Below, one piece after another: positions 2,406-34,077 of a DNA stretch of 45,606 nucleotides; position 1 is the stretch's first letter, and each line of letters starts with the position of its first letter. The position numbers and the translations under genes were made by a program. A model generated the notes under the pieces. That model was not told where the DNA came from, did not search any database, and saw only the letters and a list, made by a program, of their open reading frames with translations. Source of the DNA: a virus; UHGV virus genome UHGV-1352141, one strand, 5' to 3'.

Positions 2406-3557
2406 TTAAAAGTTGATGTATTTCGCGAATTTTTCAGCAGATTTTTCTTGCTGATTTTTTGTTACGTGGGAGTAAATTTCGAGGGTTGTTCTGGCGTTGC
2501 TATGACCTAATCTATATTGAACTTCTTGAATGGACAAGCCCGCTTCAAACAGAAGGCTGCAATGTGTGTGTCTAAGTCCATGAACTTTTATATCTTCAAA
2601 ATTGTTAGCTTTACATATTCTAGCTAAAATGCGGTTTATTCTTGCGTGATCTAGAATTTGATTAGACTTGCTAGAAAAAACCAATTGATTGGGAGCTAAG
2701 GAATTAATACCATAACTCAATAAATATTTTCTTTGATCGATTCGCCATTTTTTTAAAATTTTGATTGTTTCGTTGTCTAAGGAGATTCGGCGATTCGAAC
2801 TATGACTTTTAGGATCGGTAATTATAGGGCGACCATTATAATTTCTTGCTGATGTTTTATTAATGTCTAAGGTTTTATTATCGAAATCTATATCGTTCCA
2901 TGTTAATGCTAAAAGTTCTCCTTTACGTATTCCTGTAAAAGATAGAAGTCTAAATAAAGGATATGTTAAAGGGTAACTATCCTCAGAGCAACATTTTAGG
3001 AATCGTTCAAGTTCTTCCTTTTCGAAGAATTTCTTTTCTTTGATTACCTCCTTCTTTTTCTTTGGAACAGGCACATGTTCCATAGGGTTATCATCTATAA
3101 GACGTAGTTCTTTTGCGTAGTCAAAGACAGCCGATGTGTAAGAACGAATAGCTTTGTAAGTTTTGTACTCCTGATACCATTCATTAACAATATTTTGGCA
3201 ATAAGGAATATTAATCTTGGAAATTCTTTTTTCTTTAAAATGTGGCAGTATATTGCTTTGGAAGATAGTATACACTCTACTGTATGAACTTTCTTTCACT
3301 GTATTTTTGTAACTTTTGAGCCATTTGTCAGCAACTTCTCCAAAAGTCATATTTGATTGCGGCGTGTACTTATTATCTTTAGCTTGAAGTTCCAACTTTG
3401 CTAAAGCTAGTTTTGCCTCCTTTTTTGTTTTAAAACCTCTTTTTGTTGTGTACTGCTTTTTTCCAGTTAAGGGATTAATACCTAGATATGTTTTGAAATA
3501 CCATGCTTTATCTCCGTTTTTCTTCTGGTATTGTTTTATCATTGCCATGTGACTCAC
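2406..3557 (-). CDS. int: Tyrosine site-specific integrase
   Basis: C-terminal catalytic signature HGLRHTHCSLL...LGHSNARTTLEIYSHV (R-H-R-Y). First gene of the lysogeny module, next to the att candidate. Confidence 0.9.
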   Translation of the reverse strand: MSHMAMIKQYQKKNGDKAWYFKTYLGINPLTGKKQYTTKRGFKTKKEAKLALAKLELQAKDNKYTPQSNMTFGEVADKWLKSYKNTVKESSYSRVYTIFQSNILPHFKEKRISKINIPYCQNIVNEWYQEYKTYKAIRSYTSAVFDYAKELRLIDDNPMEHVPVPKKKKEVIKEKKFFEKEELERFLKCCSEDSYPLTYPLFRLLSFTGIRKGELLALTWNDIDFDNKTLDINKTSARNYNGRPIITDPKSHSSNRRISLDNETIKILKKWRIDQRKYLLSYGINSLAPNQLVFSSKSNQILDHARINRILARICKANNFEDIKVHGLRHTHCSLLFEAGLSIQEVQYRLGHSNARTTLEIYSHVTKNQQEKSAEKFAKYINF

Positions 3558-5569: not shown

Positions 5570-7340
5570 TGGTAATAAGTCAAGATGAAAATTGAGATTA
5601 TTTTTATTGAGTAACCTGTTTTGAAACACACTGAACTAGACCCGACCAAAATCAAATTTTTTTCGGGTTATTTCAAGGATTTGCGTCAATAACGATTTGT
5701 TATTTATCTATCACGCTCCTTGGCGGCGTGTAGAGTTGATGGTTACGTAGTAGCGTATCCACCAGACGCGTAAATTTCCTTGCGGTTAAGACGAGTGCTC
5801 GTTTGTGTTGATGTTTTGGAACCTCTTTACATTTACTTTGATAAAAAGCTTTGTATTCGGGAAGATAGTTTTTTACAGAGTTGGCAGCTTCAACTAAGTA
5901 GTAACGAAAATATCGATTCCCTTGTTTTGTCAGAGGTGTATTTTGAGATTGGTAATTTCCGGATTGTTTGACTTTCCAACTTAATCCGGCATACTTTGCC
6001 AATTTTGTTTGATCTTCAAATCGTTCGATTTGACCAATTTCAGCGATCAAGCCGGCAGCATAAACTTTCCCAATGCCTGGAATACTGGTTAAGCATTGGT
6101 ATTCTGGGATGACGACAACTAGTTGTTCAATTGCTTTATCCAGTTCTCTGATGTTCTTTTCAAGAGCCCGAATTTCACAGACAAGAATGCCCAAAACAAT
6201 ATCAATAGACTCTTGAGCTACAGATCCTAGGCGATAGCTTGATCTGATTGCTCGTTGAATTGCCTTGGCAATTCTCTCTGGTTGCTTGAACCGACCTCTT
6301 CCTTTTTCTTGGATTAAGTTACAGAAGGCTTCCAAAGGAAGCTCGGCTAATTCATCTAGGGTAAAGTCATCTGTCATAAGTGAAATGATTGTGGCACTGA
6401 AAAGACTTGTCGATTCGTCTCGTATTTCTCGAGCAAGTGTATTGCATTTGTACGTTAGATTTTCCAGAAAGTGTTGTTTTGTACGAGTTAATTGCTTTAT
6501 GAGTTGATAGCGAGTACGTGTTAAACGCTGTAAGGCCATGTACTTCTCTTCTTTGATAGGGGAAGTTGTAAATCGCTGAATACGCAAGAAGTCAGCAATT
6601 CTTAACGCATCGTTTTGATCGGTTTTATCTTCATCAAACATGCGTCTAAATTGTTTAATTCGAAAAGGATTTTCAATGGTTACTAACGTATTGATTTTCT
6701 TCAGTTCTTCATCTTCGTGAAAAAACATTGAAGGGTGGAAGCTGTACATGGAGGTTGACTCCATGCCAATCACAATTTGATTGAAGCCGTAGCTTTCATT
6801 GAATTCAAGAATCATTTCTCGTATTAATGAAGCACCTTCAATATCATTGGCAACAGAGATTTCAGACAAGATTGATAATTGACAGTCGTCTGTTAGGAAG
6901 CAAACATCTAATTTTTCAGAACTAACGTCAATACCGATAAATAATTTCATGGAAGAAGGACCTCCTTTCGATTTGAATTTTGGAAAATGCTTCGATACTG
7001 TGGGATTTCCCAGAAACTCACTGTGTAGCCACAACCTCGCCTAATAGAATACGGTGATAAAAGAGCTAGAAGCTGCCTTCCAACTACTATTTGAAAGTCT
7101 AGTCCATTATCGAAACAGCTAATGAGTTGGTAGTGATAACAGTGGTTCGGGTAACAGACTTTGCAAGGTAGACAAAGCTACAGGAGGCAATAGCAAATTC
7201 CCGCTGGATCCTTTCCATATATCCATTGTACTCTGAGAAATCACACAATATCGAAACAAATTCCGTTAGGAATATGTTATTCAATAAATTTTACCGTTCA
7301 GAAACATTTTGGTTAAAAATCATTAGACAAATAATAGTTT
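5570..7340. mobile_element. IS110-family insertion sequence (boundaries approximate)
   Basis: Single DEDD-type transposase with non-coding flanks, interrupting the phage early-gene array between the xis-like gene and the first early gene. No terminal inverted repeats, as is typical for IS110. Confidence 0.5.
5700..6950 (-). CDS. IS110-family transposase
   Basis: N-terminal MKLFIGIDVSSEKLDVCF and DEDKTDQNDALRIADFLR (DEDD) motifs, C-terminal IPGIGKVYAAGLIAEIG. AGGAGG ribosome-binding site before the ATG at 6950 (track ORF trimmed). Confidence 0.85.
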   Translation of the reverse strand: MKLFIGIDVSSEKLDVCFLTDDCQLSILSEISVANDIEGASLIREMILEFNESYGFNQIVIGMESTSMYSFHPSMFFHEDEELKKINTLVTIENPFRIKQFRRMFDEDKTDQNDALRIADFLRIQRFTTSPIKEEKYMALQRLTRTRYQLIKQLTRTKQHFLENLTYKCNTLAREIRDESTSLFSATIISLMTDDFTLDELAELPLEAFCNLIQEKGRGRFKQPERIAKAIQRAIRSSYRLGSVAQESIDIVLGILVCEIRALEKNIRELDKAIEQLVVVIPEYQCLTSIPGIGKVYAAGLIAEIGQIERFEDQTKLAKYAGLSWKVKQSGNYQSQNTPLTKQGNRYFRYYLVEAANSVKNYLPEYKAFYQSKCKEVPKHQHKRALVLTARKFTRLVDTLLRNHQLYTPPRSVIDK

Positions 7341-26655: not shown

Positions 26656-28074
26656 ATGGCAATTGTGGTAAATAGGGAAATAGCTGGGGATTTACGTTCG
26701 CCTTCAACAGAGCTTTTAAATTACTGCCTGCAGGAACATCAGAAACAGCTAAAGCGTTTGGAGAAGTTATCTGATTACTACGATGGTAATCAAGAGATAC
26801 TTAAACGAAAAAAAGAAAACGAATCTGCACCAAACAACAAAGTACTGATCAACCATGCGAAGTATGTAGTTGATATGAATGTTGGTTTTATGGTTGGCAA
26901 TCCTGTTGCTTATTCAGGAACTGGAGAAGTTGATTTGTCGCCTATTCTTGACGAGTATGATCGTATTGATATTGTTTCACATGACACGGAATTAGAAAAA
27001 GATTTATCGACCTTTGGAATAGGTTATGAATTAATTTATTTGAAAGATGAGGCAGAATTATCTATAAAATGTATTGATCCACGAGGGATTTTTTTAGTTA
27101 CTGATGACACTATCGACAAAAATCCGCTATTTGCGATTCACTATCAACCAGTATTCACTTTGCAAGGTGGCATTAGCCATTATATTGTTAAGTATTACAG
27201 TGATGATCGGATACTTACGTATAGAACTGAATCGAGAGGATTTGGCTCCTATCAGTTAGTTAAAGCTTTACCACACTATTTTGGAAGAGTTCCTGTAATT
27301 GAGTACAGAAACAATGAAGAAAAGCAGGGGGACTTTGAGCAAGCAATCTCATTAATTGACGCATATAACTTATTACAATCGGATCGACTGAACGACAAAG
27401 AAGCGTTCGTTGATGCGATTCTTTTTATTCAGGGGTTTGTTCTCCAAGACGGTGATGGTGAAAAGCTTCAGAAAGAAAAAATGCTCCAAGCTCCAGGTTC
27501 AAAATCTGATACAGCTGCAAGCTATCTAACAAAAGCATTAGATGAATCAAGTGTGACTTTGTTGCGTGATGCAATCCTAGATGACATTCATAAAGTAACG
27601 TATGTTCCAAATATGAATGATGAGAAGTTCGCGGGAAACGTTTCGGGTGAGGCAATGAAATATAAATTGTTTGGTTTGTTGCAATTAATGTCTGTGAAGT
27701 CTCGATACATGATTAAGGGATTAAGGCAACGCTTAGAAATATTTTCAACAGTGTTGAGGTACACAGAGCCAGAGATAGATATTTCAGGAGTGAAAATTAA
27801 GTTAAAACCTAATCTCCCAATTAACACGAGCGACATAATCAATCAGATTGTGACTGCTTATAACGCAGGGATTTTGCCACTAAAAATTTTATTGTCGTGG
27901 TTGCCCGATATTGATGATGTCGATGAAGTAATTGAACAATTGAATCTAGAAAAGGAAGAAAAAATTGAGCTACAGAAGAAAGTGATGGGCGTTCAAGCAG
28001 AAGACAGTCATTCGGATTTAGATGAACCACCTGAGGAGGAAGACGATGATCAAAGCAACGTTCATAAAGAGTAA
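26656..28074 (+). CDS. Portal protein (SPP1 gp6-like)
   Basis: Its size and its position after terL fit the portal family. Acidic C-terminal tail. Confidence 0.75.
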   Translation: MAIVVNREIAGDLRSPSTELLNYCLQEHQKQLKRLEKLSDYYDGNQEILKRKKENESAPNNKVLINHAKYVVDMNVGFMVGNPVAYSGTGEVDLSPILDEYDRIDIVSHDTELEKDLSTFGIGYELIYLKDEAELSIKCIDPRGIFLVTDDTIDKNPLFAIHYQPVFTLQGGISHYIVKYYSDDRILTYRTESRGFGSYQLVKALPHYFGRVPVIEYRNNEEKQGDFEQAISLIDAYNLLQSDRLNDKEAFVDAILFIQGFVLQDGDGEKLQKEKMLQAPGSKSDTAASYLTKALDESSVTLLRDAILDDIHKVTYVPNMNDEKFAGNVSGEAMKYKLFGLLQLMSVKSRYMIKGLRQRLEIFSTVLRYTEPEIDISGVKIKLKPNLPINTSDIINQIVTAYNAGILPLKILLSWLPDIDDVDEVIEQLNLEKEEKIELQKKVMGVQAEDSHSDLDEPPEEEDDDQSNVHKE

Positions 28075-28522
28075 CGGCTCGTATATTAGTTATGAGATTA
28101 CTGGTCATGCTCACTACGCTGAACCGGGCAAAGATATCGTTTGCGCTGGTGTGTCTACTCTTTTTATCACGATTACTAATCAATTACTTTGTAAATCGTA
28201 CGTGAAGTTGCAAGACAAGAAAGTTTCCATTCTTAATCCGGATGAGATTGATAATGCGTTAGTCGAAGCGTTATTATGCGGTTTGTATGATATTCAACAA
28301 AACTATCCTAATTATGTTTCTGTTGAAGTATCTAAAAAATGGACAGCAAACATGAAGTATGCTGTCCATGGGTATTCAAAAACTTTTCATTCTAGAGATG
28401 AAGCAATCAAGTTTGCAGAGTCTGTTTCAGTTTCTCGTAGTCGGGTTTTGATGATTTGTCCACCGGGACTGCTACAGAAAAACTTTGATAGGGGGAAGTT
28501 AGTTGCCGAAAAAACAAGATGA
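28046..28522 (+). CDS. prp: Prp-like cysteine protease (homologue of the ribosomal-processing protease)
   Basis: MIKATFIKSNGSYISYEITGHAHYAEPGKDIVCAGVSTL matches the Prp His/Cys signature. GGAGGAAGACG ribosome-binding site. Confidence 0.65.
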   Translation: MIKATFIKSNGSYISYEITGHAHYAEPGKDIVCAGVSTLFITITNQLLCKSYVKLQDKKVSILNPDEIDNALVEALLCGLYDIQQNYPNYVSVEVSKKWTANMKYAVHGYSKTFHSRDEAIKFAESVSVSRSRVLMICPPGLLQKNFDRGKLVAEKTR

Positions 28523-29741
28523 TTCCTACTGGCTCGATCGAGGGATTAAGCAAGAGAAAAAAATTAATGACGCTGCGAAACAAGTCGAACAAAAGATAAT
28601 TGTAGCTTATCGACAGGCTCAAAGTTATTTGACGAGGCAAGTTAGAAAACTATTTAGTCGAGCGAAACAACGTTCTGGAATGGATGAGGGAGAAACAAGA
28701 GCGTTACTTAATCAAACTGTTCAACCTGATGAGTTAGTAGAATTGAGAAAGCTTGCTGATGATGTTTCTCATCCTGAACTTCAAGAGTCCGCAAGAAAAC
28801 GATTGAATGGATTGGCATTTAAAGAGCGAATAACACGAGCTGAAGACTTGAAAGCCAAGTCTTTTTTAGTTTCCAAACAGATTGCTTCTGTGCAACTAGA
28901 TAAATCGACTGAATTTTATATTGATGTTATTCACGATTCGTATAATGAGACAACTGCCGAAACAATCATAAGGCAAGTTGAGCAAACAAAATCTGATCAG
29001 ATCATCAGTGTTCGGAATGGAAAAAAGCATGGTTCAAAAATAGAAGCATCTAAACAGACGCAAAAACGTGACGTACCGATTGAGGTGTGGAATGATCCTG
29101 ATATTCGATCGACTGATTACGAATTCAAGGAGCTTTCAACTAAGTACACCAAGAATATTCTTGATTCTCATTGGCATGGTTCAAATTATTCAAAACGTAT
29201 CTGGAAAGATACTGAAGCATTGGCCAAACGTCTTGAAGAGTTATTTACTGTTGAGTCTATGACAGGGATGTCCGAGTTTGAAATGGCTAAAGCGATAGCG
29301 ACTGAATTTGACCGCTCAATTGGTGTTGCTCAGCGTTTAATACGAACCGAGGCCAATTATATGGCAAATCAAGCAAAGCTCAAAGCATGGCGAGACAGAG
29401 GTGTAAAAGAGTATCGTTTGATTGCTGTATTAGATTTAAGAACATCTGAAATTTGCCAGAAGAAAGACGGAAAGATTTATCTTGTTTCCGAAGCTGTTGT
29501 TAATGGGGAAGCCGGAACGTATCCACCGTTTCATCCTTGGTGTCGAACTGTTGCTGTTGCTATTATTGGCAAACGATCACTAACAGGCAAACGAATAGCC
29601 CATGATCCGATCAGCGGAAAAACAATTACCATGGAACAAAGAGAAACATATGATGATTGGATGAATAAGTTAAAACAACGATATTCTAAAAAAGAAATTG
29701 AGCTTCAGAAAAAGAAGCTTCGGAATTACAGAAAAAAATAA
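28503..29741 (+). CDS. Head morphogenesis protein (Mu F / SPP1 gp7 family)
   Basis: C-terminal LRTSEICQKKDGKIY...PPFHPWCRT matches the Phage_Mu_F motif. Confidence 0.75.
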   Translation: MPKKQDDSYWLDRGIKQEKKINDAAKQVEQKIIVAYRQAQSYLTRQVRKLFSRAKQRSGMDEGETRALLNQTVQPDELVELRKLADDVSHPELQESARKRLNGLAFKERITRAEDLKAKSFLVSKQIASVQLDKSTEFYIDVIHDSYNETTAETIIRQVEQTKSDQIISVRNGKKHGSKIEASKQTQKRDVPIEVWNDPDIRSTDYEFKELSTKYTKNILDSHWHGSNYSKRIWKDTEALAKRLEELFTVESMTGMSEFEMAKAIATEFDRSIGVAQRLIRTEANYMANQAKLKAWRDRGVKEYRLIAVLDLRTSEICQKKDGKIYLVSEAVVNGEAGTYPPFHPWCRTVAVAIIGKRSLTGKRIAHDPISGKTITMEQRETYDDWMNKLKQRYSKKEIELQKKKLRNYRKK

Positions 29742-29899
29742 TTAACTGCCCTGAATATGGCGTTAAACTGTTCGAAAATATCAAACATACTGATTGGGTC
29801 TATCAATCAAAAATCAAGTGGACTGGTTAAACTGGGCTGCTTTTTTTGCGTGCGCTAGGACTGATTGGGATAGGAGAGATTGAATTGAAAAATTTACTA

Positions 29900-30541
29900 A
29901 TGAAATTAGACCTGCAACTTTTTGCTGAAGAACAACCCTCAGATCAGAATTCCGAACAAATCAGGAATCCATATGAAGCTGGAAATCCTGAGTTTGATGC
30001 TGCAGTTTCTAAAGCAGTCAATACGGCTTTGGAAAATAATGACAAAAAATGGCAATCGAAACTTGATGAGAAATTGGAAAAGGTTCGGCAAGATGCGAAA
30101 ACAGAAGCTGAAAAAATGGCGCAAATGAATGCTGAACAAAAAGCGGATTATGATCGCCAACAGCGTGAAGCGGCATTAGATCAGCGAGAATTGGAACTAA
30201 ATATGCGTGAATTACGAGCGCAGTCAATTACGCAGTTAACAGAGGATAATTTACCTGTTGAATTAGTTGATCTTTTAGATTTGTCAGATGCAGATAAATG
30301 TCAAACTGCATATAACAAATTGAAAACAACGTGGGAAAAAGCTGTGGGAACTTGGGAAAAATCCTTACAAAAGAAAGTGAAAGAAGAACTAAAAAATAGT
30401 GTTGATAATCCTTTGGGGGATGCAACAAATCCAGAAGTTAACCCTTGGAAAAAGGAAACACTCAACCTTACAAAACAAGGTCAGATTTTGAAAGAAGATC
30501 CAGAGCGGGCAAAAGTGCTAATGGCTCAAGCCAATAAATAA
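29900..30541 (+). CDS. Scaffolding protein carrying a Prp cleavage motif
   Basis: Starts MKLDLQLFA-EEQ (L27-like LxLQ(F/L)FA). Coiled-coil-rich acidic and basic body. Its position before the major capsid gene fits a scaffold. Confidence 0.6.
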   Translation: MKLDLQLFAEEQPSDQNSEQIRNPYEAGNPEFDAAVSKAVNTALENNDKKWQSKLDEKLEKVRQDAKTEAEKMAQMNAEQKADYDRQQREAALDQRELELNMRELRAQSITQLTEDNLPVELVDLLDLSDADKCQTAYNKLKTTWEKAVGTWEKSLQKKVKEELKNSVDNPLGDATNPEVNPWKKETLNLTKQGQILKEDPERAKVLMAQANK

Positions 30542-30558
30542 GAAAGAAGGATAAAATC

Positions 30559-31593
30559 GTGGATAAATTAAAAATGAATTTACAGTTTTTCGCTAAAAAA
30601 ACAAAAATTGAAGATGTTATTGTTCCAGAAGTTTTTAATAAGTATGTAATCGAGCGTACAGCTGAATTATCAGCTTTATACCAATCGGGTATTGTAAGCC
30701 ATAATCCGGAGCTAGATGCTCTAGCTAGTGCCGGTGGTAAACTAATCAACATGCCTTTTTGGGCTGATTTAACTGGTGAAGACGAAGTCTTATCTGATAC
30801 GAATCCATTAGAAACGGATAAAATCACCGCGAATCAAGATCAGGCGGTTCTATTGATGCGTGGTAAAGCTTGGAAAGCGAACGATTTAGCAAAAGCACTT
30901 TCTGGTGATGATCCTATGCGAGCAATTGGTGATTTAGTTGCCGCTTATTGGGCGCGTCGTCAACAAGTAACTTTGCTTTCTATATTGAAAGGTGTGTTCG
31001 GAGGAACATCAACTAAAATGGCTGGAAATAGTCTAGATATTTCCGCTGAAACTGGAAATGATGCAGCATTTACAGGGGAAACATTTATCAATGCTTCTTA
31101 CAAACTGGGAGATGCAGAAGAAAAATTAACAGCATTAGCTGTTCATTCTTCAGTATACGCTAATTTACGAAAACAAAACTTAATTGAATTCTTGTTAGCT
31201 TCTGACAATACTAAAATTCCAACTTATATGGGGAAACGTGTCATTGTTGATGATGGTATGCCGTTAGATGGAGATGTGTTCACTTCTTATATTTTCGGAG
31301 AAGGAGCAATCGGTTTAGGAAACGGCGCGGCTCCTGTGCCAACGGAAACTGATCGTGATGCTTTAGCAGGAGATGATATTTTGATTAATCGCCAACACTT
31401 CTTGTTACATCCAAGAGGGGTGAAATTTACTAATAAATCTGTCGCAGGTTCTTCTCCTACGAATGCCGAATTGGCAACGGCAAGTAATTGGGAACGTGTA
31501 TATGAGCCAAAAAATATTCGTATTGTTCAATTCAAACATAAGCTTTATGTTCCTAATGTCACGGCTTCTGGTAGAACTGGAACAGGTAAGTAA
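30559..31593 (+). CDS. Major capsid protein (HK97 fold) with an N-terminal Prp motif
   Basis: MDKLKMNLQFFA-KKT N-terminus. Its size and its position after the scaffold gene fit a major capsid protein. GTG start after GAAGGA. Confidence 0.75.
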   Translation: MDKLKMNLQFFAKKTKIEDVIVPEVFNKYVIERTAELSALYQSGIVSHNPELDALASAGGKLINMPFWADLTGEDEVLSDTNPLETDKITANQDQAVLLMRGKAWKANDLAKALSGDDPMRAIGDLVAAYWARRQQVTLLSILKGVFGGTSTKMAGNSLDISAETGNDAAFTGETFINASYKLGDAEEKLTALAVHSSVYANLRKQNLIEFLLASDNTKIPTYMGKRVIVDDGMPLDGDVFTSYIFGEGAIGLGNGAAPVPTETDRDALAGDDILINRQHFLLHPRGVKFTNKSVAGSSPTNAELATASNWERVYEPKNIRIVQFKHKLYVPNVTASGRTGTGK

Positions 31594-31608
31594 AGAAGGT
31601 AAAGGAAA

Positions 31609-31956
31609 ATGAATGATGAGTTACTGGAAAAACACACGGATGTGTTGATGGAACGTCTCGACGATGTTGAGGAAAAGGAAAGACCTAAAATTAAAGGCAT
31701 GTTAGAGGACGCGATTACTCTCATTCTTGATTATACCGCTCGAACAACCGAACAGATGAACGATAGCCTTTATTACTATGCGCGACAATTAGTTGTGATT
31801 GCTTGGAATCAGGAAGGAAATGAGGGAGATGCTGCTCGTTCTGAAGGCGGCGTCTCCCATACCTTTATTACAGATATTCCGCCTAAATTAAAATCGTGCT
31901 TAAATAATCACAGGCTGGGAAAGGTCGTGAGTTTTCATGCGCCTAAGGAAACGTGA
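31609..31956 (+). CDS. Head-tail connector protein (gp6/gp15-like)
   Basis: Typical size and position. Confidence 0.55.
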   Translation: MNDELLEKHTDVLMERLDDVEEKERPKIKGMLEDAITLILDYTARTTEQMNDSLYYYARQLVVIAWNQEGNEGDAARSEGGVSHTFITDIPPKLKSCLNNHRLGKVVSFHAPKET

Positions 31957-32290
31957 CCTTTCAACCGTTTATTTAAAAGAGCGGTTAACTGGGCAAGATG
32001 ATGAAGGAAACTTTCAAGAAGGTTTTTCAGATGAATCAACAGAGATTCAAATGAATATTCAATCCGCAGGAGGACAAGTAATGGCTTCTGTCTATGGTCA
32101 AAGTCTTCCATACATCAAATCTTGCAAGTATCAAGGTGACAAAATCAAAGAAGGAAAGAATGAGAAAGATGGTATTTGTCTTTATGTGAGCAAAGATAAA
32201 GAACCAGACTATGAAATTGTTGCCATTCAAACATTTTCTGCTCATTGTAATGTGACCTTGAAGAAACTAGGTGATGAAGATGGGCGTTGA
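31937..32290 (+). CDS. Head closure / head-tail adaptor protein
   Basis: Position in the conserved neck module. Confidence 0.45.
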   Translation: MRLRKRDLSTVYLKERLTGQDDEGNFQEGFSDESTEIQMNIQSAGGQVMASVYGQSLPYIKSCKYQGDKIKEGKNEKDGICLYVSKDKEPDYEIVAIQTFSAHCNVTLKKLGDEDGR

Positions 32291-32819
32291 GTTCAGAGGT
32301 GCTGACCGACTGATGTCAAAAATACGAGCGATTCCTAAAGTGATGGAAGACGCTGTTTTTGAAGCGACATTCGATATTGTAGATGAAACTGTGGCAAGAG
32401 CAACAAGTCACCTGCAATCGTCAATTAAGTATGGATCAGGTGAATTAAGTGGTTCTCCAAAGCAGGAAGTCGTGATCGATGGTAAAGGTAAAATAATAGG
32501 GCGTGTGTGGTCAGACAAGATGGAAGCATTGTTTCGAGAGTTTGGTACAGGTCCAGTCGGAGCAGAGTCACCAAAAGATCTGCCGCCTGGAGTTAATCCT
32601 GTTTATTCTACTGAACGGTGGTTTATTCCTGTACACAAAACATCTGTTGACCTTGAGATGGTATACGGTATTTCAAGAGTGACTATCAAGGGACAAGATT
32701 TCTTTATGACTCGTGGGCAGCCGGCAAGACCTTGGCTATATCCGTCAATGAAAGAAGTGGTTGAAATGGCCGAAGACATTTATAAAGATCGTGTGAAGGA
32801 AGGACTGAGGAAACTATGA
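32271..32819 (+). CDS. HK97 gp10-like neck/tail component
   Basis: Position and size fit the HK97 gp10 family. Confidence 0.5.
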   Translation: MMKMGVEFRGADRLMSKIRAIPKVMEDAVFEATFDIVDETVARATSHLQSSIKYGSGELSGSPKQEVVIDGKGKIIGRVWSDKMEALFREFGTGPVGAESPKDLPPGVNPVYSTERWFIPVHKTSVDLEMVYGISRVTIKGQDFFMTRGQPARPWLYPSMKEVVEMAEDIYKDRVKEGLRKL

Positions 32820-33181
32820 CAGAGCGTTATAACATAAAGTCTGATATTGTTGCTCAGTTGAAAAAAGTCGCTGAGCTGAAGCTCGTATCTGCGGAGTATC
32901 CTAACACATGGTCGAATATGCCCGCTGCAATTTATTCGACAAAGGCAAAGCCGCACAAGAAAGATATATCCGACAAAGAAGCACTAACTGAATGGACAGT
33001 AAAAATCGATTTATACGGAAACAAATCTCTATCTACAATACAGAGTGAAATAATTAAAGTATTGAAAGAGATTGGATTTAAGAATACAGCCAGTGATGAT
33101 GGCAATCAAGATGCATTGAAGCGTTCGATTCTAACATTCCGAGGAGTGGTAGATAATCGAACGCTTTTTGTATACCAATAA
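32816..33181 (+). CDS. Tail completion / tail terminator protein
   Basis: Position immediately before the major tail protein. Confidence 0.45.
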   Translation: MTERYNIKSDIVAQLKKVAELKLVSAEYPNTWSNMPAAIYSTKAKPHKKDISDKEALTEWTVKIDLYGNKSLSTIQSEIIKVLKEIGFKNTASDDGNQDALKRSILTFRGVVDNRTLFVYQ

Positions 33182-33196
33182 CAAGGAGGAAATACC

Positions 33197-33634
33197 ATGA
33201 AGAAAACAAAAATTTTACCGATGAACTTACAATTATTTGCCGGTTTACTAACTAAGGGCACGGCGTTATCAATGAAATCAGGCTCCGAGTCTGGCTTTAC
33301 TGAAATTGAAGGATTACAAGCTGTTCCTGAAATCGGTGGAGATCCAGAACAAGTTGATGTTACGACGCTAAAAGACGCAAATAAAAAATATATTTCGGGT
33401 ATTCAAGATATGGATTCATTAGAGTTCACTTTCTTATATGACAAAGCTGTATTTACAAAGTTAAAGGCAGTGCAAACGTCAGGAAAAGAAGCAAAATTTG
33501 AATTGTCTTATCCTGACGGTGCGAAATGCACATTTACTGGCGGCGTGACTGTGAAAATGGGTTCTGGTGAAGTAAACGGAGCCTATCAATTTACGCTGTC
33601 TGTAACTGTTTCAGATGGACCGGATTGGGCATAA
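33197..33634 (+). CDS. Major tail protein, N-terminus also carries a Prp-type motif
   Basis: MKKTKILPMNLQLFA-GLL. Gly/Thr-rich beta-type protein before the chaperone and tape-measure genes. Confidence 0.6.
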   Translation: MKKTKILPMNLQLFAGLLTKGTALSMKSGSESGFTEIEGLQAVPEIGGDPEQVDVTTLKDANKKYISGIQDMDSLEFTFLYDKAVFTKLKAVQTSGKEAKFELSYPDGAKCTFTGGVTVKMGSGEVNGAYQFTLSVTVSDGPDWA

Positions 33635-33705
33635 ACGTTTAACGAAAACTATATGGGCTAGAGATAACCCTCTGGCCCTATTTAAATCTTAGGAGGAAAA
33701 ACAAT

Positions 33706-34077
33706 ATGAAACCAATGAAAGTAGAATTTGGAACTAAAACTCTATCCCTTGTATTAGATGGAAGTGCAACGGTAGACATTGAGAAGAAATTAGGTAAATC
33801 GTTATTTGGAATTATGATGACTGGCAACGGTGGAATGAAAATGCCGCGATTAGGTGAAATGCTAACTATCTTGCATTCTGCGAACCAAACAGCAAACATC
33901 AAGTCTGCCGATATGACGAAACTTTATGATGAATATATTTCTAAAGGCGGATCGATGATGAAGCTTTTCGAAGTCATTCAAGAATTGATGGAGAAGGCAG
34001 GTTTTTTCGAGTCGGAAACGACGGACGGAGAAGACCTAGTTGGGGAAGAGAAAAACGAGGAAGAGAGTCTAGTGTAG
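33706..34077 (+). CDS. Tail assembly chaperone (gpG-like)
   Basis: Acidic small protein between the major tail protein and the tape measure. Confidence 0.55.
   Translation: MKPMKVEFGTKTLSLVLDGSATVDIEKKLGKSLFGIMMTGNGGMKMPRLGEMLTILHSANQTANIKSADMTKLYDEYISKGGSMMKLFEVIQELMEKAGFFESETTDGEDLVGEEKNEEESLV

Follow-up and report, generated by a model that had tools for sequence, protein, structure and literature searches.

A gene for a cysteine protease of the Prp family lies in the late operon of the virus genome UHGV-1352141, a stretch of 45,606 nucleotides referred to here as the window and numbered from its first letter, and three proteins of the same operon, the scaffolding protein, the major capsid protein (MCP) and the major tail (tube) protein (MTP), begin with short leaders resembling the N-terminal extension of ribosomal protein L27. 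It is probable, in our assessment, that the phage-borne Prp trims these L27-mimicking propeptides from the scaffold, the capsid and the tube proteins. The phage Prp and the leaders constitute a real and correctly interpreted variant of the known Prp/L27-tag system, one that reaches the tail tube.

The protease begins MIKATFIKSNGSYISYEITGHA...DIVCAGVS, and its ATG at 28046 is preceded by the ribosome-binding site GAGGAGG. An earlier reading made from the letters of the window only (the sequence-only reading) had recognised it as Prp-like by its His/Cys signature, and family, residue and fold evidence bears this out. Residues 1-91 of 158 match positions 1-89 of the 90-position profile Peptidase_Prp (PF04327; MEROPS C108) with an E-value of 2.9e-22 and a score of 79.1 bits, the gathering score being 27; sequence matches in the PDB are 2g0i, 2idl and 1s12, and both the TGHA and the DIVCAGVS motifs are kept in the alignment to the streptococcal Prp 2g0i (labelled SMU.848). 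Identity to this structure (2g0i/2g0j), for which the PDB header and PMC9405229 name different source organisms, is about 37-39%. Residues His21, Asp30, Cys33 and Ser37 correspond to H22, D31, C34 and S38 of the S. aureus Prp (SaPrp), where H22 and C34 form the catalytic dyad and D31 and S38 are helpers (PMC9405229). All four are invariant in an alignment of 44 homologues, which argues for selection on activity. The AlphaFold (AF2) model of the protein has a mean pLDDT of 78, with the core (residues 1-96) mostly above 90 and residues 21-30 low; its elements are E2-9, E12-19, H31-48, E53-56, E59-62, H67-86 and E91-97, and its best Foldseek matches are the solved Prps 2g0j, 2idl, 7kld and 1s12, with a probability of 1.00. 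The gene is not placed between rplU (L21) and rpmA (L27), being found in the phage late operon between the portal and the MuF genes, where it begins inside the 3' end of the portal gene, and none of the 12 NCBIfam Prp equivalog cut-offs is reached, the best being NF011134 with 65.9 against 185 bits. Because of this location and of these scores, the protein of the window is not the housekeeping ribosomal-processing enzyme.

Translation of the whole window in six frames yields exactly three copies of the pattern LQ[FL]FA, each in frame and at most 15 residues from the start of a major assembly protein; in first-order Markov simulations the mean expectation is 0.18 copies, and three copies were reached in none of 200 runs. 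The ORFs and N-termini of the three candidate substrates are as the sequence-only reading had described them, with an L27-type motif at the start of each. Its cleavage point, placed after the alanine, falls one residue too late, since Prp cuts between Phe and Ala, so that Ala stays on the mature protein (PMC5744158, PMC9405229); the predicted cuts would then take off 8 residues from the scaffold, 11 from the capsid protein and 14 from the tube protein (Table 1). The leader of L27 in Enterococcus faecium is MLLSMNLQLF/AHKK, the slash marking the cut, and at the level of sequence the phage leaders are close copies of this host tag.

In Staphylococcus phage 80alpha the host Prp (YsxB, MEROPS C108) cleaves the scaffold gp46 and the capsid protein gp47 at an L27-like motif (PMC5744158). 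The scaffold of the window is 28% identical to gp46 (E 1e-7), with its leader in register with that of gp46 at the cleavage site proven by experiment; for the tube protein there is no such experimentally cleaved homologue. The alignment of the capsid protein with gp47 is limited to the leader and the few residues that follow it, and the capsid propeptide would have 6 residues if translation started at ATG 30574. The scaffold ATG at 29900 lacks a recognisable ribosome-binding site and its frame is open from a TTG at 29846, so that the true start, and hence the length of this leader, is uncertain. The tube protein had been proposed as the third candidate substrate under the name of major tail protein, an identity that its domains and its fold confirm: the model adopts a lambda gpV-like tube fold (Foldseek 8k36, 7t2e and 9mfe; TMq 0.66 for 8k36), with the first 20 residues modelled as disordered, and the gene, whose ATG at 33197 follows a strong ribosome-binding site (AAGGAGG), is located between genes matching phrog_78 (tail terminator) and phrog_183 (tail chaperone).

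Table 1. Features of the window discussed in the text (a slash marks the predicted cut).
Feature	Position	Strand	Length	Basis or remark
SHOCT-domain protein	322-897	minus		left end of window, beyond integrase
Integrase	2406-3557	minus		
IS110-family transposase	5700-7034	minus		DEDD_Tnp_IS110 + Transposase_20; inserted into early/lysogeny region of prophage
SPP1-type portal protein	26656..28074	plus		PF05133, E 1.6e-115
Prp-family cysteine protease, phage-encoded	28046..28522	plus	158 aa	PF04327; phrog_4478 'peptidase'
Prp core	about 28046-28333	plus		residues 1-96
C-terminal extension of Prp protein	28334..28519	plus	~60 aa	joined to core at A6 run (28336-28341)
MuF-like minor head protein	28503..29741	plus		PF04233; phrog_115
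Open frame upstream of and into scaffold	29846-29926	plus		from TTG 29846
Scaffolding protein	29900..30541	plus	213 aa	PF14265 (DUF4355, Gp46 scaffold family), E 1.4e-17; phrog_172
Scaffold, predicted propeptide	29900-29923	plus	8 aa	residues 1-8, MKLDLQLF/AEEQ
LQ[FL]FA copy, scaffold	29906-29926	plus		six-frame scan
Major capsid protein (MCP)	30559..31593	plus	344 aa	PF20036 (Gp13-like); phrog_247, E 6e-125
MCP, predicted propeptide	30559-30591	plus	11 aa	residues 1-11, MDKLKMNLQFF/AKKT
LQ[FL]FA copy, MCP	30580-30594	plus		six-frame scan
Major tail (tube) protein (MTP)	33197..33634	plus	145 aa	PF08813 (Phage_tail_3) + PF16460 (TTP_11); phrog_158
MTP, predicted propeptide	33197-33238	plus	14 aa	residues 1-14, MKKTKILPMNLQLF/AGLLTKG
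LQ[FL]FA copy, MTP	33227-33241	plus		six-frame scan

The order portal, Prp, MuF, scaffold, MCP and, further on, MTP is also found in Lactococcus phages TP712 and PLgT-1, Brochothrix phage BL3, Enterococcus phages phiFL3A/B, the Latilactobacillus TMW phages (TMW P1) and Oenococcus phage phi9805. These relatives differ from the window in having proteins only 38-44% identical to its own and Prps of 95-104 amino acids that lack the C-terminal extension; scaffold and MCP leaders are present in all of them. The tube protein carries a leader in BL3 (MDLQKF/A), phiFL3A (LDLQLL/A), TMW (TDLQKF/A) and phi9805 (INLQRF/A), and is leaderless in TP712 and PLgT-1, where it starts MATVAGLLSKG. A comparison of 59 database homologues of the tube protein shows a conserved leader core, (N/D)(L/I)Q.F(A/G), preceded by residues that drift; the leaderless homologues start M(A/S)GLL(S/T)K, as MAGLLTKG, MSGLLSKG or MATFAGLLSKG. 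Without its initiator Met, an M(A/S)GLL start equals the product of a cut between Phe and Ala, which suggests that the tube propeptide is a separable module.

The association of leaders with the protease was surveyed in 80 IMG/VR loci, retrieved by means of the tube-protein alignment, and eight reference loci, all scanned with a Prp HMM and a leader pattern; 75 modules with enough upstream DNA were scored, the leaders of some loci (L132-L146, L102) being read by eye. A Prp gene is present in 58 of these modules, with a leader on the scaffold in 50, on the MCP in 48 and on the MTP in 45; in the 17 modules that have no Prp gene the corresponding numbers are 10, 1 and 0. These 17 have the portal and MuF genes directly side by side and, for the rest, homologous neck and tail genes. 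Within the surveyed module family a tube leader thus appears only where a phage Prp gene is present. Locus L103, at first sight a tube leader with no Prp, was rejected as an exception, its Prp gene being located 250 bp outside the fetched stretch. For Prp against MTP leader the Fisher p value is 4e-9 on raw counts, 4e-5 on clusters at 95% identity and 7e-4 on clusters at 80%. The mosaic relative L007 has Prp and tube protein in common with the window but not the capsid type; a leader is present on its capsid and tube proteins, and its scaffold, also different, has the variant MNLQLFS. The ten Prp-less phages that retain a scaffold leader (e.g., PLNLQLF/ADGD) are L129, L135, L137, L142, L144, L145, L150, L153, L157 and L158, and these presumably rely on the host Prp, as 80alpha does.

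The two groups also differ at P2, the residue before the P1 Phe. Over loci L001-L007 and L088-L167, 53 distinct leaders come from Prp-encoding phages, and 27 of them have a polar or basic P2 (K/R/H/Q); none of the seven leaders of Prp-less phages, a small sample, does, L, M, F or Y being the only residues at this position. These numbers hint that phage Prps may tolerate or prefer polar P2 residues.

Gene identities, catalytic residues, fold, motif placement and co-variation are the basis on which cleavage, the enzyme performing it and its usefulness to the phage are proposed here. Prp would be made from the late operon together with the structural proteins, and the scaffold, capsid and tube proteins would each be synthesized with a short propeptide mimicking the host L27 extension. 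A Prp dimer would bind the (N/D)LQx(F/L) segment and cut between Phe and Ala, removing the 8, 11 and 14 residues, respectively, and leaving the tube protein with the N-terminus AGLLTKG. A protease of its own would supply the phage with processing capacity for three very abundant substrates, independent of a slow host enzyme, and possibly with a more tolerant specificity. The capacity argument is drawn from the fact that three of the most abundant virion proteins are tagged and that SaPrp is slow (kcat 0.26 per s), holding its product and releasing it slowly (PMC9261936); the specificity argument is drawn from the polar P2 residues, which are seen only where the phage brings its own enzyme. The host Prp may contribute to processing in the window phage as well, since the leaders are host-like.

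As for its purpose, the propeptide is probably a temporary handle or a block against premature assembly of the subunits, judging from L27 and from the 80alpha scaffold, which needs its leader but not the cleavage of it. In lambda-type tubes the N-terminal arm helps to join successive rings, and for this reason an assembly block would be plausible for the tube protein too. It can be speculated further that throughout this widespread set of Firmicutes siphophages tube polymerisation is controlled by proteolysis, with an L27-mimicking cap that blocks ring stacking and that the phage Prp paralogue, expressed along with the head operon, must remove for the tube to grow, the enzyme being a combined head-and-tail maturation protease with a more tolerant P2 (K/R/H/Q) than its host counterpart; we regard this extended version as doubtful.

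Several points weigh against trimming by the phage-borne enzyme. Direct cleavage evidence for the window phage or its homologues, and N-terminal data for the tube family, are absent from the searchable literature. The cleavage of scaffold and capsid proteins in 80alpha is dispensable, yet the scaffold leader is essential (PMC5744158), and both 80alpha and the Staphylococcus prophage phi13 manage on the host Prp alone. All three leaders of the window have L or F at P2, as in the host L27, so that the host Prp could do the whole job. In addition, 13 Prp-encoding phages have leaderless tube proteins; the Prp and tube genes are 5 kb apart in one module, so that shared ancestry inflates their co-occurrence; the clustering does not fully correct for relatedness; and on clusters at 60% identity the Fisher test has no power. 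The missed NCBIfam cut-offs and a possible effect of the C-terminal extension on the activity of the enzyme count on the same side.

Some of these points would be accommodated if the chromosomal Enterococcus Prp cut all three propeptides, as in 80alpha, the phage copy being redundant, a supplement, or kept for another purpose such as processing of the host L27 or a non-catalytic chaperone function. The leaders MNLQLF/A, LDLQLF/A and MNLQFF/A of the window closely match MNLQLF/A of E. faecium L27, leader-bearing proteins exist without an own Prp gene in 80alpha and phi13, and the scaffold leader is kept in 10 of the 17 Prp-less relatives, all of which a host enzyme acting by itself would explain. 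What such an enzyme does not explain is that a tube leader is never seen without a phage Prp (0/17 vs 45/58) and a capsid leader almost never (1/17 vs 48/58), nor that all 44 homologues of the phage enzyme keep its catalytic residues unchanged, and we consider processing by the host Prp only to be unlikely.

The leader could also be an assembly or folding handle that binds Prp or another factor, with a chaperone or timing function, its removal being incidental and not needed for assembly. The essential leader and dispensable cleavage in 80alpha fit this proposal, as do the tight binding of SaPrp to its product and the chaperone role proposed for this enzyme (PMC9405229, PMC9261936). Against it, the natural leaderless tube proteins, those of the TP712 type and of all Prp-less relatives, evidently form tails, and folding therefore does not intrinsically depend on the leader. 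A handle is moreover compatible with trimming by the phage Prp and not exclusive of it; taken as the whole explanation, it seems to us improbable.

A different concern is whether the phage Prp is active, or even correctly delimited. The sequence-only reading did not mention that the protein carries some 60 residues beyond the Prp core. This extension, missing from most phage Prps, starts at a run of six A, and the 158-residue ORF might be taken for a frameshift fusion at this homopolymer, the more so as a frame-shifted short Prp variant differing at the run exists (P0063, with 20 member sequences) and the equivalog cut-offs are missed. On the other hand, the long form has been kept, with amino-acid substitutions, in the diverged homologues P0060-P0062, which are 69-74% identical overall, and is also present in the IMG/VR contigs L088, L089 and L091, and the core and all catalytic residues are intact in long and short forms alike, which leaves an inactive protein or an annotation artefact very improbable. 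The extension is modelled as a small beta-beta-alpha-beta unit with pLDDT 65-80; it has no match in Pfam or PHROG, and its only similarity is a weak one (tblastn, E 7e-5) to a region without annotation close to the lysogeny genes of Streptococcus phages, e.g., Javan493. Finally, a chance origin of the three motifs, to which only the shortness of the motif could lend colour, is rejected as next to impossible on the simulations, the in-frame N-terminal placement and the recurrence in dozens of related phages.

As a whole, the window represents an almost complete prophage, a temperate siphophage of the Enterococcus raffinosus/avium group. Tube proteins near-identical to its own come from sources named Enterococcus raffinosus, E. 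gilvus, E. hulanensis, E. avium and E. malodoratus, the nearest genome locus belongs to the Enterococcus sp. prophage L007, and a megablast search of positions 28000-34000 against the phage collection gave no nucleotide match to sequenced phage isolates. Besides the genes listed in Table 1, the prophage has small and large terminase genes, neck proteins, tail chaperones, a 1552-residue tape measure protein, distal tail proteins and an Amidase_5 endolysin; the SHOCT-domain protein may be prophage cargo or belong to the host flank. By Pfam and PHROG matches there is no protease domain besides Prp in the head-to-tail module; a match of the MuF-like protein to phrog_595 ('head maturation protease') was rejected, because it covers the MuF domain and the protease domain is absent. 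The MuF-like proteins of the close relatives L007 (7584-9305) and L103 (791-2608) have 573 and 605 residues against 412 in the window, owing to long C-terminal additions, and L007 has an additional 93-residue ORF between Prp and MuF.

Catalogue entries for phage Prp genes exist already, namely phrog_4478, 'peptidase' in RefSeq and 'ribosomal-processing cysteine protease Prp' at NCBI, and the window phage belongs to a large group of Firmicutes phages that has been annotated before. The finding would be no great surprise to specialists of this enzyme. The sequence-only reading had singled out the processing of a tail protein as unusual: the combination of a phage Prp with an MTP leader stands, and the implied novelty was overstated, because a 2017 paper had already remarked on the motif in the major tail protein of phi13, and phage Prps were annotated before. 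Kizziah et al. 2017 pointed out this motif and wrote that Prp seems to be associated with ribosomes, procapsids and tails (PMC5744158). In the searchable literature, outside which the original papers of Wall et al. fall, no description was found of a phage-encoded Prp acting on the structural proteins of its own phage, nor proof of tube-protein cleavage, nor a report of Prp/leader co-variation; on a phage-encoded Prp or on Prp acting on a tail protein, only the 80alpha papers and reviews turned up, and the virion proteomics paper on phiEf11 and the cryo-EM paper on NF5 give no data on N-terminal processing. The 'alternate protease' for pneumococcal L27 of a 2026 preprint was considered as a possible phage Prp and rejected, the enzyme being an Ntn hydrolase.

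To our knowledge, 80alpha is the only phage whose proteins have been studied for processing by Prp. A phage-borne prp can be deleted or mutated without harm to the host, which makes it a tractable means of examining the role of Prp in virus assembly. Should the tube protein indeed be processed, this would be an instance of a siphophage tail tube maturing by proteolysis, and the proposed link of Prp to large self-assembling structures would extend from ribosomes and capsids to tails. The co-variation gives a testable prediction, namely that tube and capsid leaders should hardly ever occur unless a phage Prp gene is present, and polar P2 residues never. There are also practical consequences for annotation, where prophage copies are currently named "ribosomal-processing cysteine protease", and for antibiotics targeted at Prp, for which prophage copies could supply a second Prp activity.

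Compared with known systems, the window is closest to 80alpha, with which it shares the protease family, a (K)LNLQ(F/H)F/A propeptide on scaffold and capsid proteins, homologous scaffolds and the gene order portal, MuF, scaffold and MCP; 80alpha differs in having no Prp gene of its own and a leaderless tail tube (gp53), whereas the window has a phage-encoded Prp with an extension and a leader on the tube protein. The major tail protein of phi13, like that of the window, starts with a Prp-type leader, which we confirmed as MIEKLKQAPRFLKLNLQHF/ADTG. It is nevertheless unrelated to the tube protein of the window, having 318 amino acids and belonging to a phage with an HK97-type head and a ClpP-like prohead protease; the phi13 morphogenesis region that was fetched, from the terminase to the tail genes, contains no Prp gene, and the host Prp is presumed to process the protein. 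The chromosomal Prp, which in Firmicutes goes with a long L27 in the rplU-prp-rpmA operon, has the same fold, the same His/Cys pair with Asp and Ser helpers and the same substrate motif, and the enzyme of the window is set apart from it by its place in a phage late operon and by its extra C-terminal segment. In E. coli both Prp and the long L27 are lacking. Classical prohead proteases (HK97 gp4/S78, ClpP-like S14, T4 gp21/U9) are also phage-encoded, belong to the head gene cluster and trim the N-termini of capsid or scaffold proteins; they differ from Prp in an unrelated fold and catalytic type and in acting inside the procapsid, and we know of none that processes a tail tube protein. The window phage, in contrast, has drawn on a cytoplasmic protease family of ribosome maturation, and a tail protein is among the candidate substrates.

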